Shown: piece by piece, positions 242-3,639 of the stretch
Numbering within the stretch: position 1 is the first letter of the stretch
Layout of the letters: the number at the start of each line of letters is the position of its first letter
DNA from: Abditibacterium sp.
Lineage (GTDB): Bacteria > Armatimonadota > Abditibacteriia > Abditibacteriales > Abditibacteriaceae
DNA length: 32,000 nucleotides
Direction: 5' to 3'
Assembly (NCBI GenBank): GCA_965199495.1
Contig: CBDASK010000003.1
Span: 441,212 to 473,211 of the forward strand
Made by a program: the position numbers and the translations under genes
The notes under the pieces: generated by a model
Databases searched by the model: none
Told to the model about the DNA's origin: nothing
Seen by the model: only the letters and a program-made list of their open reading frames with translations

Positions 242-2518
242 TTACGGCGAGACCAAGTAGGAGCGAATCTTACTGTTTTGACAGGCGATAAGCATAAGTG
301 CAGGTCTTCCTTCAGGATGTAGCTTCTCAGTGAGCCACTGCATCTGTTTTTTGTCCTGCTTGCTTTCTTTGCAGGGAACGTTATCTGGATGTGAATGCCA
401 TTCGCCGATGTAAGTGACTTGGTTCATCGTCACTTCGCCAACGCGTTTCAAAGTCTCTTCCATTCCTTCAACTCCCCTCTCGCAACCGCACAATTCTTCT
501 ACAGAGTCAGCAGGAGCGGGCAACGCCTGGCAAATGTAAGCTCGCTTGCGCTGCATATCCAAGTAACCCAGCAGTGCGCCGCAAGTTTCGCGTGGCAAAC
601 ATTCTGAACGGTATCCAAGGATAGTTCGCTTTAAGTCCTCGTCAAAAATTATCGTCCATCCATCTGCCTGATGCAAAACAGGTTTTGACAAAGCAATATC
701 TACACGCGTCACCGTCATCTCTTCCGAGTGACAGCGCCAAATATGCAAAACGGCCTCGGAGCTATTTGCAATGCGACGCACGGCACTGGCGCCGATGGCG
801 GCGTGCAGTGCCACGGCCTCCTGCGAGATATGCGATGTCAAATCACGGCATCCACCGCTATAGCGGCTTTGTGTTTCAGAATTGCCGAAGTATCCTTCCA
901 ACCGAGCGTCTTCAAGCAGTGCGCGCAGATATTGAAGTTCGATAACATCTAACGGAATAGTGCGATTGCCGTCTTCGGCCATCGCAACCAAATCTAAACC
1001 GCTCGGACTTAAAAATAGCGAAGCGCGCTTCGAGACCGCTTTCCAATTTAAAGCGAGATGACGTGAGACCGCAACGGAAGCGCTCATGTCCAAAATCAAT
1101 TCTGCGGCTTCGGCGCTTTTTTCTAAATCTGATGCATCAATCAACGGCGTCAAAACATCAGTAACTATGGCTTGCGCCAGAGGTGTGCCGTCAAACATTT
1201 GATTCGCTTGAGTTGCCATCTCGACTGCTTTCGCTAAACCAAAGCGGCTTCCCAGAATGGCATGACGCACGGCGTTGTGAGGCGCAAAATAGTCGCTATC
1301 GACAAGCGTCCATTGTCCCCATCCTTGACGAGCAAGATTCTCAAAGACCTGAGAACCCAAAGCACCCATTCCTACCGCGAGAACAGAAGTTTTATTACGC
1401 GAATCCTGACCGCTCAATACGGATGCTCTTTGGGCTGTCAATTTGAACTCAGGCGAAAGCATGGTCACGCGCACTTGTTTGGCTCGTTCGCGCACGGTAT
1501 CCAAAGACGTGAACAAAATTTGAGACGACGTTGCCGGTTTAGAGCCAGCAATAACGGATGGTGCTCGTCCCAAAATTTCGAGAGTGACACCAAGCTCAAC
1601 GGGATTAATATCTACTAAATGCCCAGATTTGAGGGTTTGACACCTGAATCCAAAAACATCGGTGGCCTCAGCATTTTGTCCGGCGTTGCGTGCTTTTGGA
1701 ATTCCGACTACTAAAATAGTTCCGACAGCATTTGGCAGTAGCTGACTCGCTTTTTCCTGAAGTCGCCTCTTTAGATTGGCCGCGAGATCGTAACCTGCAC
1801 GCTGACAAAGTTGGTCGAGATCATATAACGTTACCGGTTCAGCTCTTATGATGCCATGTTCTTGAACTGGTAATTGAAAGGGGAAAAGCAGGAAGGGCTG
1901 ACCTGGACGCCCTTGTGCCATGCTGCCCAGCCTGTCTGCAATTAGGATTTCTCTCTCTCCGGTGTTCGCGCTATAAACCATCAACATTTCCAGAGCGGAC
2001 GAGGTAAAAATATCAGGAGGCAAAATCAAGGGACGACTAAATCCGCCGATGAATGGCTCCAGACTTTGATCCTCTTTGTGCAAGGTGCCGCAAGCGGTTT
2101 CTCTAAGCCACCATAATATCCTCTCCCCCAGCAACGCGGGAGTCCAACGCAAGTTAAGGTCTTCTCTACGTTCTGCAAATAGACACAGGCTCTTGGGAAA
2201 TTCCGATCTGGAAAGGTTCAAATGCGGGACTTGCGGGAAGTCCTCGCGCATGGACACGACTTCGGGTAAATGACTGGGGTCATCACCAAACAGCACCGCC
2301 AATTGCTCTTCATAACGGATGTCGTTAATCGAACGTTGCGGCACCTGGGGTTTAGCGGTGACAATGATGATTTCAGAACCATTGATTTTGTAGCACTCGC
2401 CCAGTTCAAGATAAGGATTTAAATCGGACGAGACATAGCGAGCAAATGACTTCGCCCGCTCCAAAGACAATTCAGTGACCGAGATGAGCGACTCAGACTC
2501 GAAAAGTTCCATATTCAA
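242..2518 (-). CDS. E2-like / ThiF-E1 adenylation / JAB (JAMM) triple-domain fusion protein
   Basis: 758-aa ORF. N-terminus: VPHLNLSRSEFPKSLCLF (H99-L-N101, ten residues, Cys112) resembles the E2 HPN...Cys active site. Middle: VLAVGMGALGSQVFENLARQGWGQWTLVDSDYF has the Rossmann GxGxxG plus acidic nucleotide-binding residue of ThiF/MoeB/E1. C-terminus: RETCGALLG ... GEWHSHPDNVPCKESKQD gives E644 plus HxH-x8-S-x2-D, JAMM-like. The track start is TTG at 2518, overlapping the upstream stop; the first ATG is at 2512. Confidence 0.9.
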   Translation of the reverse strand: MNMELFESESLISVTELSLERAKSFARYVSSDLNPYLELGECYKINGSEIIIVTAKPQVPQRSINDIRYEEQLAVLFGDDPSHLPEVVSMREDFPQVPHLNLSRSEFPKSLCLFAERREDLNLRWTPALLGERILWWLRETACGTLHKEDQSLEPFIGGFSRPLILPPDIFTSSALEMLMVYSANTGEREILIADRLGSMAQGRPGQPFLLFPFQLPVQEHGIIRAEPVTLYDLDQLCQRAGYDLAANLKRRLQEKASQLLPNAVGTILVVGIPKARNAGQNAEATDVFGFRCQTLKSGHLVDINPVELGVTLEILGRAPSVIAGSKPATSSQILFTSLDTVRERAKQVRVTMLSPEFKLTAQRASVLSGQDSRNKTSVLAVGMGALGSQVFENLARQGWGQWTLVDSDYFAPHNAVRHAILGSRFGLAKAVEMATQANQMFDGTPLAQAIVTDVLTPLIDASDLEKSAEAAELILDMSASVAVSRHLALNWKAVSKRASLFLSPSGLDLVAMAEDGNRTIPLDVIELQYLRALLEDARLEGYFGNSETQSRYSGGCRDLTSHISQEAVALHAAIGASAVRRIANSSEAVLHIWRCHSEEMTVTRVDIALSKPVLHQADGWTIIFDEDLKRTILGYRSECLPRETCGALLGYLDMQRKRAYICQALPAPADSVEELCGCERGVEGMEETLKRVGEVTMNQVTYIGEWHSHPDNVPCKESKQDKKQMQWLTEKLHPEGRPALMLIACQNSKIRSYLVSP

Positions 2519-3639
2519 CCCGCGCGGGTGGGAGTTTGTGTGGCTGCTGACGCCGGAGCCGGAGTTGAAGCAGACTCGATTTCAAAACCAGAGCTACCGA
2601 TGTTCACGACCATCGGTTTAGGTGCTGTTGGCGAAGGATGCTCCATCGTAACTTTGAACTGCCCATTAACACGATTGATGTTTTCGACGTGATAATTTTT
2701 GGATTGAAAGTGAGGCGGCTGCGTTTGCTCCTGACTCATCACGCGTTCGCTGGTGGAAATAACCAAAGCTCGCTCCGACGCCATTTCAAACCATTCTTTG
2801 ATCAGGGGTTTGGGCACTGTTTTCGTTGCACCTTTGATGTCGCTCAAAGATTTGTAGCTACAATGATGAGGCAACTTGAAAACATCGAACTCCAAGCGGT
2901 GCTGGTTACCATGCTTTTTGGATATGCTCACGATATCCTCCATTGAGACCCATGTGGTATCGCCACCAAAAATCACCCTTGTTTCAACGCCGCCACTCAC
3001 AAAAACGGTCTGCATCACAATGGAATCTTGATTGCGATCTTCGACTTCTCGTTCGTTAATCCGGTGGGCGTGCGGCGAGTGCAGAAAGAACTCGACTTTA
3101 TCCTCATCTTTGGTAAAGCCCTCGATAGTCTGGCCCGCATCGGTAATAAGATGTTTGCGCGATTCCAGTGTCAAACCTTCGCCTTCGAGCCACTGTTTCA
3201 AACGCGCGGGTCGCCCAAAGACGCGAATGCCTTCACCTTTTTTGAGCCGGTGTCTGGCCTCAGCGCGCCAAATGCGCGAGTCGTCCTCGACGCCAGCCTC
3301 AGTGATTGCGCCAGAAGGCACCCACAGCGTTTTGATTTTGTAGCGGCCTTCGCCCTGGTATTTTTGTGCGTGTTCCAGATGGAAGAAGTCGGCTGCTCCC
3401 GCAATATGATCGTTGTCGATATGGGTGATACAGAAAACATCGACATCGGTTCTCTTCTTGGCTGCCAGCTTCGCCGAAATATCCGATTTGATGTCCCATC
3501 TCAAGTCAAACTTATTGGTTGAACTCTTGACGTTCGCGTAATCAAGGACAAAAACTCGGTCGAGACCCGAAACGGTCTCCTCGAAGTCAATGAAAAGAGT
3601 GTCGGCGTTGCCAAGAGGATAAAAGGTGAGTTGGTGCAT
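2515..3639 (-). CDS. MBL-fold metallo-hydrolase, ComEC/Rec2-like (probable nuclease), with a low-complexity C-terminal tail ending in Gly
   Basis: 374 aa. MBL motifs occur in order: YPLGNADTLFIDF, FCITHIDNDHIAG (HxDxDH variant of HxHxDH), FFLHSPHAH, IFGGDTTW, FKLPHHCSY (like the ComEC-type HHGS motif). The tail is ...ESASTPAPASAATQTPTRAG followed by the stop. The stop TGA at 2515-2517 overlaps or abuts the next gene's start. Confidence 0.9.
   Translation of the reverse strand: MHQLTFYPLGNADTLFIDFEETVSGLDRVFVLDYANVKSSTNKFDLRWDIKSDISAKLAAKKRTDVDVFCITHIDNDHIAGAADFFHLEHAQKYQGEGRYKIKTLWVPSGAITEAGVEDDSRIWRAEARHRLKKGEGIRVFGRPARLKQWLEGEGLTLESRKHLITDAGQTIEGFTKDEDKVEFFLHSPHAHRINEREVEDRNQDSIVMQTVFVSGGVETRVIFGGDTTWVSMEDIVSISKKHGNQHRLEFDVFKLPHHCSYKSLSDIKGATKTVPKPLIKEWFEMASERALVISTSERVMSQEQTQPPHFQSKNYHVENINRVNGQFKVTMEHPSPTAPKPMVVNIGSSGFEIESASTPAPASAATQTPTRAG

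Follow-up and report, generated by a model that had tools for sequence, protein, structure and literature searches.

In a 32,000-nucleotide stretch of the Abditibacterium sp. contig CBDASK010000003.1 (positions 441,212 to 473,211; in the following called the window), a three-gene operon was identified which, judged by its sequence matches, belongs to the 6A-MBL anti-phage system described previously. It codes for a 238-aa membrane protein, an MBL-fold metallo-hydrolase and a fusion protein of E2, E1 and JAB domains (cap2_3). The MBL hydrolase itself probably acts as the modifier in place of a ubiquitin-like protein (Ubl) and is conjugated through its last residue, Gly374. The comparison with its homologues indicates that the Gly-ended tail very probably lets the neighboring E1-type enzyme attach the MBL to other molecules. 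Conjugation of the MBL through its C-terminal Gly had been suggested in a first-pass annotation of the window; the support gained here is comparative and comes from the tail, from negative controls and from the intact conjugation machinery.

The MBL protein has a length of 374 amino acids and its C-terminus reads ...SGFEIESASTPAPASAATQTPTRAG, with TQTPTRAG as the final residues; positions 2518..2592 are exactly the last 25 codons of its open reading frame (ORF). The Gly374 codon GGT is located at 2520-2518 and the stop codon TGA at 2517-2515. Two in-frame starts were found for the cap2_3 gene. The first is a TTG at 2518-2516 (758 aa), which begins on the last base of the Gly codon and runs into the MBL stop, and the second is an ATG at 2512-2510 (756 aa), 2 nt past the MBL stop. 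The ATG, which is the start picked by gene callers in the two closest relatives (756 aa), is more likely. The two genes are adjacent and co-directional, either separated by 2 nt or overlapping by 4 nt (2510-2520). In the AlphaFold2 model of the MBL, built on 35 homologues (mean pLDDT 88, pTM 0.89), the fold stops near residue 357. The tail is predicted to be disordered, since the pLDDT is below 50 at residues 358-370 and 372-374; an internal loop is also of low confidence. The ORF, the coordinates and this predicted disorder agree with the earlier description of a low-complexity tail with a terminal Gly directly next to the E2-E1-JAB gene.

In the Pfam search the MBL protein gave a marginal match to Lactamase_B alone, and the MBL fold is also supported by PADLOC and NCBIfam. 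The metal ligands H73, D77, H78, H187, D227, H258 and H259 are invariant in an alignment of 35 homologues. The nearest solved fold is the MBL domain of ComEC (9ic4), with a Foldseek E-value of 1e-13 and a sequence profile E-value of 1.5e-6. Based on the intact metal ligands and on the nearest relatives, the ComEC MBL domain and the phosphorylcholine esterase Pce, the protein is most likely catalytically active, as a phosphodiesterase or nuclease. The ComEC domain (PDB 9ic4, 30bt) is the closest solved relative by both profile and fold and shares the H-x-D-x-DH metal site. However, ComEC is a membrane protein for DNA uptake which lacks a Gly tail and an E1 partner, and the identity is about 13%.

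A search with the MBL protein yielded 2,283 homologues (E ≤ 1e-10), of which the best 120 were used for the tail statistics. Furthermore, a scan of one genome per species yielded 382 loci; all figures per 80 loci refer to the best 80 of these 382, which span about 20 phylum-level lineages including one Bathyarchaeota metagenome-assembled genome. The motif [RKQ][AV]G was found in the last 16 residues of 119 of the 120 homologues, exactly terminal in 78 and with 1-7 residues beyond it in 41, and the terminal residue is Gly in 82. Among the loci, 77/80 carry the motif; it forms the very end of the protein in about three quarters of them, and 1-12 residues are added past it in the others. The conservation of the tail and its Gly in syntenic homologues, on which the first-pass annotation had made its proposal depend, is thereby established. 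An exact terminal Gly is present in 57 of 72 non-identical syntenic homologues, as compared to 9.9% of the background (binomial P ~1e-43), which consisted of 565 other ORFs of at least 200 aa from the same loci, MBL ORFs excluded. Only 0.2% of these background ORFs end in [RKQ][AV]G.

A Gly-anchored profile was built from 72 non-identical tails of motif-bearing loci. Position 0 is Gly in 72/72 tails (entropy 0 bits), position -1 is Ala in 70/72 (0.18 bits) and position -2 is Arg in 70/72 (0.21 bits). Pro or Ala is preferred at positions -3 and -4 (1.5-1.7 bits), and positions -5 to -25 are variable (1.6-3.4 bits, mostly 2-3.4). In the alignment of the 35 homologues, A373 and G374 are at least 90% conserved. 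The distance of the Gly to the conserved TM(E) motif was measured on 192 sequences; it is exactly 42 residues in 150 of them and 40-44 residues in 185. The tail linker is free in sequence and fixed in length. In a more divergent set of 58 full-length representatives of 50%-identity clusters, [RKQ]xG was found in the last 14 residues of 46, with the variants RFG, RYG, RHG and RMG.

In about 20-35% of the MBL homologues the Gly is followed by 1-12 residues. The conserved unit is the R-A-G motif, which would need trimming in part of the family. A near-terminal Gly is also kept in plasmid copies of 23-27% identity, each of which is followed by a "ThiF family" E2-E1-JAB gene. Their MBL C-termini are ...KTYGK in Clostridium perfringens, ...PRAGVSNQ on an Escherichia coli IncF plasmid, ...MPHGAS in Acinetobacter baumannii and ...PRAGRWR on Gluconobacter oxydans pGOX1. 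Several homologues have other extensions. In P0152 (398 aa), 28 hydrophobic residues extend beyond the RAG and may represent a membrane anchor that JAB releases. P0135, P0149, P0172 and P0185 (482-508 aa) are longer by a C-terminal domain (about 140 aa) and lack the Gly tail, and in P0175 (660 aa) the MBL is fused to an E2-like domain.

A cap2_3 homologue is located directly downstream of the MBL gene and on the same strand in 79/80 loci, and the sole locus without it (L055) also lacks the tail motif. As a control, a paralogous family named MBL2 (about 356-366 aa) can be considered, which is paired with the membrane protein in the absence of any E1, e.g., in a Bradyrhizobium prophage region. 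The C-termini of MBL2 read ...YPEEQES or ...VESWD and have no R-A-G. Both types occur together in locus L092, where the cap2_3-adjacent MBL ends in ...TPPRAG and the MBL2 has no such end. The Gly tail is confined to the E1-paired MBL, which mirrors the pattern of the CD-NTases in CBASS, whose terminal Gly/Ala is kept only where Cap2 and Cap3 are part of the operon (PMC10097602). The C-termini of the patatin (described below), the membrane protein and cap2_3 were also inspected for a conserved terminal Gly and none was found, which rules out these three proteins as substrates of the E1.

MBL2 (ComEC-like) two-gene modules or neighbors were recorded at L087 4918-6762, L092 4910-6789, L086 7980-9050, L001 4162-5148 and L057 9516-10331. 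MBL2 genes also adjoin some 6A-MBL operons.

The cap2_3 protein is matched by the PADLOC models for the CBASS E1-E2 protein (E 4.6e-22) and for JAB (E 1.1e-21), and its E1 part resembles the Cap2 structures 7tsq (E 5.5e-6) and 7to3. Across 71 aligned cap2_3 proteins, C112 of the E2 domain and C557 of the E1 domain are 100% conserved. At least 95% conservation was found for H99 and P108 of the E2 domain, for G383, G385, G388, R397, D407, D409, N415, R418, K430 and D477 of the adenylation domain and for E644, H708, H710, S719 and D722 of the JAB domain. All of these residues are present in the protein of the window, which equals the consensus at every invariant catalytic position checked. The residues of the conjugation and deconjugation machinery are intact.

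From the anatomy of the tail, its conservation, the catalytic residues and the family membership, all of which were observed directly, we infer the following chemical steps and their consequence for the MBL. The disordered tail of about 17 residues would bring the R-A-G end into the E1 adenylation pocket, where Gly374 would be adenylated. It could then be passed as a thioester to Cys557 of the E1 and subsequently to Cys112 of the E2, from which the MBL would be ligated to a nucleophile on the target, most likely a lysine. The JAB domain would undo this ligation. In relatives with residues past the Gly, the JAB domain would first trim the precursor and expose the Gly. Conjugation would be expected to prime or localize the MBL, as it does for the CD-NTases in type II CBASS.

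The steps are proposed by homology with Cap2 and Cap3. In type II CBASS, the deletion of the C-terminal Gly/Ala of the CD-NTase abolishes thioester formation, conjugation and defense (PMC10097602), and the disordered tail of the CD-NTase occupies the E1 site of Cap2 as an AMP adduct (10.1101/2022.03.31.486616). Cap3 cleaves a linear cGAS-GFP fusion exactly past the last CD-NTase residue (10.1101/2022.03.31.486616); by analogy, the extended MBL tails are best read as precursors trimmed by JAB. If conjugation holds, the MBL would be the second clean example of an enzyme, rather than a Ubl, serving as E1-E2 cargo, the first being the CD-NTase of type II CBASS. The R-A-G end, the 42-residue spacing, the natural pro-peptides that predict JAB trimming and the E1-less paralogues as controls offer handles for experiments.

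Some observations weigh against conjugation of the MBL. In 12 of the 58 full-length divergent representatives, [RKQ]xG is missing from the last 14 residues. The motif is also missing in 3/80 loci (L034, L055 and L058), and L034 and L058 keep cap2_3; the loss in these two looks like frameshifts or a fusion. In addition, no report of an MBL-Cap2 thioester or conjugate was found in the literature searched, which did not cover the primary 6A-MBL paper.

A different function of the tail would be that it merely tethers or plugs the E1 or the JAB pocket, maybe in an adenylated or thioester-linked form, in which case regulation would be exerted by the complex and no transfer would take place. The conservation as such demands only that R-A-G binds in a pocket at a fixed distance, and CD-NTase and Cap2 are known to form a stable complex (10.1101/2022.03.31.486616). 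However, Cys112 of the E2 is invariant in the 71 homologues, as is the entire JAB isopeptidase site. This is hard to account for unless transfer and reversal occur, and the homologous machinery of CBASS conjugates its substrate. This function is therefore regarded as unlikely.

Activation of the MBL Gly for the formation of a thiocarboxylate, as in sulfur carriers of the ThiS/MoaD type, is highly improbable. The adenylation domain is of the ThiF/MoeB type and homologous to E1s of sulfur transfer, and the ThiS/MoaD-type carriers also end in Gly. However, neither the window nor the 80 loci contain rhodanese, cysteine desulfurase or cofactor-biosynthesis genes, and the adenylation domain is fused to E2 and JAB domains, is encoded in a defense island on a mobile element and belongs to a family annotated as anti-phage.

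The conserved end could also reflect a constraint on the nucleotides, namely a Shine-Dalgarno sequence or translational coupling for cap2_3, rather than a function of the protein. The genes do abut or overlap, with a 2-nt gap here and overlaps of 4 to 11 nt in RefSeq examples. At the motif, however, all four Gly codons (GGC 32, GGG 19, GGA 11, GGT 10), all four Ala codons (GCG 29, GCA 23, GCT 10, GCC 8) and five Arg codons (CGG 24, CGC 15, CGT 13, AGG 12, AGA 5) are used freely. This full mixture of synonymous codons shows that the protein is under selection, rather than an RNA signal that would serve cap2_3. The motif also stays intact when it lies 1-12 codons before the stop, and its constant distance of 42 residues from the fold is a feature at the protein level. 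An explanation at the RNA level is thus effectively ruled out by the codon usage, and we give it hardly any weight.

A separate Ubl as the real substrate of the E1, encoded either by the 67-aa ORF at 27..230 (-) or by a gene outside the window, is equally implausible: the ORF, named as a weaker alternative by the first-pass annotation, does end in Gly (...RIGTISG) and starts 11 nt past the stop of the fusion gene, but it runs antisense to the final 70 codons of a gene for a serine recombinase, and the operons on unrelated plasmids hold only the MBL, cap2_3 and a membrane partner. The recombinase frame reads TLGKLEIEPHPLMVPILGLEP..., matches the C-termini of Resolvase/Recombinase genes in the loci L081 and L082 and is kept in both, with 94% DNA identity over 2.6 kb in L081. 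The terminator-like hairpin at 112..90, noted earlier together with the ORF, falls within this coding region. For the 67-aa ORF, zero tblastn matches were obtained in the 80 loci and no family match in Pfam, PADLOC or NCBIfam. It exists because it is antisense to the 3' end of the recombinase gene and is ruled out as a Ubl, being a shadow of a conserved C-terminus without homologues of its own.

When all ORFs of at least 45 aa around the 80 operons were clustered, no recurrent small gene was found except shadow ORFs of known genes, in line with the earlier remark that no dedicated Ubl gene is evident. The operon thus has no separate gene for a beta-grasp Ubl of the kind that characterizes the Bil/Bub systems. 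Like these systems, 6A-MBL has an anti-phage role and is predicted to use E1/E2/JAB-type chemistry with a C-terminal Gly and the trimming of a precursor by a peptidase. However, the Bil/Bub systems have a separate beta-grasp Ubl as well as a separate E1 and E2, whereas the 6A-MBL enzyme carries the tail itself.

The assignment of the operon to the 6A-MBL system is based on two NCBIfam models. The MBL protein matches NF058524 ("anti-phage 6A-MBL system MBL-fold protein") with 365.5 bits against a cut-off of 220, and the match covers residues 6-351 and the model positions 1-346 of 346. The fusion protein matches NF058523 ("anti-phage 6A-MBL system cap2_3 protein") with 576.7 bits against a cut-off of 320. 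In agreement with this, a dedicated MBL, an E2-E1-JAB protein, adjacent co-directional genes and intact catalytic residues were found. As in other members, a specialized MBL-fold protein is followed by the triple-module E2-E1-JAB protein in one operon located on a mobile element. No essential feature sets the copy of the window apart. It has a gene for a 238-aa membrane protein upstream, whereas most relatives have a patatin lipase gene downstream. Its MBL is at most 53% identical to the MBL of any species-representative genome scanned.

The name 6A-MBL originates from the operon type 6a (Table 1, row 6a) of Iyer, Burroughs and Aravind, 2006 (PMC1779556). The system is listed among the defenses of Pseudomonas aeruginosa against jumbo phages (10.1101/2025.09.30.679545) and a review (PMC13276650) credits it to van den Berg et al., 2024. 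It has also been stated in print that "MBL pathways" conjugate their enzyme. The idea of the MBL as the conjugated enzyme is thus already the working view of the field and not new to specialists, and since both the system and the idea are in the literature, our results are a confirmation rather than a discovery. What is added are the details of the motif, the predicted trimming of pro-peptides and the proposed CBASS-like three-part architecture.

Relatives of the system were found on 271 plasmid records, among them Klebsiella (122), Clostridium (31), Escherichia (25) and Acinetobacter (17), and 133 of the records are conjugative. The plasmid copies are mostly annotated as 'hypothetical protein', 'metallohydrolase' or 'ThiF family adenylyltransferase'. 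For annotation, this means that a Gly-tailed MBL beside a ThiF-family gene on plasmids of Klebsiella, E. coli, Acinetobacter and Clostridium belongs to this defense system. The coordinates of the features in the window are given in Table 1.

Table 1. Features of the 6A-MBL operon and of the convergent recombinase gene in the window.
Feature	Position	Strand	Evidence
3' end of a large serine recombinase gene, convergent with the operon	1..210	+	frame 0 reads TLGKLEIEPHPLMVPILGLEP..., matches C-termini in L081 and L082
E2-E1-JAB fusion gene (cap2_3)	242..2518, stop 242-244	-	NF058523; Pfam Prok-E2_A, ThiF, Prok-JAB
JAB/JAMM metallopeptidase domain, residues 628-746	281..637	-	Pfam PF14464, E 4e-9
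E1 catalytic Cys557, codon TGC	850-848	-	100% conserved, downstream of the adenylation core
E1 adenylation core, residues 369-479	1082..1414	-	Pfam PF00899 (ThiF), E 1e-10
E2-like domain, residues 58-173, Cys112 codon TGT 2185-2183	2000..2347	-	Pfam PF14457, E 1.5e-20
MBL-fold metallo-hydrolase gene (374 aa + stop), 6A-MBL enzyme	2515..3639	-	NF058524, metal ligands, AlphaFold2
Predicted disordered C-terminal tail, residues 358-374, STPAPASAATQTPTRAG	2518..2568	-	pLDDT, variable sequence, fixed length
R372-A373-G374 motif, proposed E1 adenylation/thioester site	2518..2526	-	conservation
238-aa helical membrane protein, likely optional third component and candidate membrane effector	3816..4532	-	recurrence beside 6A-MBL

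The core of MBL and cap2_3 is accompanied by different third genes; in nearly all loci the third gene lies on the same strand and its product is directed to the membrane. Homologues of the 238-aa protein were found beside the core and on the same strand in 14/80 loci (L006, L011, L021, L026, L045, L047, L053, L061, L062, L068-L070, L073 and L074), and never together with a patatin gene. Further homologues were recorded at L084 3668-4396 and L086 2702-3490, and plasmids of C. perfringens and A. baumannii also have homologues beside 6A-MBL. The family occurs in many phyla, with its genes placed before the MBL gene in some operons and after cap2_3 in others. For the 238-aa protein, AlphaFold2 gave an all-helical model (pLDDT 93). 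No match was obtained for it in Pfam, NCBIfam or PADLOC, and the best hit of a fold search against the PDB, MotA/PomA, was not significant (E 0.47).

In 50/80 loci, a gene for a patatin-like phospholipase is located directly past cap2_3 on the same strand, e.g., in L002-L005 and L007-L010; such a gene was also recorded on G. oxydans pGOX1 (L083 8325-9473). The gene order of enzyme, Cap2/3 and CapV-like effector that results from this resembles CBASS. Of the other 16/80 loci, 8 lie on contigs that stop right past cap2_3, and most of the others have a different small membrane protein, an MBL2 or both. A second family of small membrane proteins (about 180-230 aa) has the N-terminal motif YD.L..L.PG and takes the slot of the third gene or is paired with MBL2 (L057 10334-11032, L063 9373-10044, L065 9813-10349, L076 3193-3789, L079 9300-9905, L080 9356-10021). 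It occurs in loci that have neither patatin nor the first membrane-protein family.

Additionally, divergently oriented regulators resembling CapW and CapP were found upstream of 6A-MBL operons, namely WYL proteins in 15 loci and M78/IrrE peptidases in 22 loci. Examples on the minus strand are L004 4914-5810, L003 4025-4843, L085 3502-4356 and L086 3497-4399. The copy of the window has a divergent helix-turn-helix (HTH) gene at 4768..5247 (+) in place of WYL or M78.

Based on the membrane partner and the WYL or M78 regulators, 6A-MBL is laid out like type II CBASS, and the MBL takes the place of the CD-NTase. Both systems have homologous E2-E1 and JAB enzymes (Cap2, Cap3), a substrate enzyme whose disordered tail ends in Gly and is conserved only when the E1 is present, a slot for a membrane effector (patatin/CapV-like or transmembrane) and, in the relatives of the window copy, CapW- or CapP-like regulators. 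They differ in the substrate, which in 6A-MBL would be a metallo-phosphodiesterase resembling ComEC and Pce instead of a CD-NTase, and in the fusion of Cap2 and Cap3 into one protein. Furthermore, 6A-MBL has the motif R-A-G, whose penultimate residue is constrained, and about a quarter to a third of the members have a short pro-peptide. Homologues of Cap2 and Cap3 and the E1-dependent Gly/Ala tail known from type II CBASS are thus found in 6A-MBL; a CD-NTase was detected neither among the operon proteins (Pfam, PADLOC, NCBIfam) nor in the larger ORFs elsewhere in the window (Pfam).

It can tentatively be suggested that 6A-MBL is not a nuclease system of two genes but a CBASS-like pathway of three parts, in which the Gly-tailed MBL would act as a conjugation-primed sensor or signal processor controlling a swappable membrane effector. 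Should this apply, the patatin lipase, the 238-aa helical membrane protein and the second family of small membrane proteins are conceivable as exchangeable effectors, a role that we put forward with similar reserve. The modules of MBL2 and a membrane protein may be the E1-less 'type I' counterpart. If correct, the three-part pathway would represent immune signaling without a cyclase or a direct coupling between hydrolase and membrane effector at the protein level.

The operon is embedded in a mobile or defense island, whose further parts in the window are located at 1..210 (+), 4768..8000 (+) and 8007..9095 (-). Besides the 3' end of the serine recombinase gene, it contains an HTH-Mrr_cat-YdjM module, a Phage_rep_O-like gene and a gene for a pentapeptide-repeat and TIR protein. 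The same synteny of the island is present on the 94%-identical metagenome contig L081, which additionally codes for a CAP12-PCTIR_TIR protein. Finally, a copper or heavy-metal resistance cluster adjoins the island at 12463..31003. It encodes, among others, a 1116-aa RND pump resembling AcrB/CusA, a membrane-fusion protein and an outer-membrane factor, as well as a multicopper oxidase and an HMA-domain P-type ATPase.

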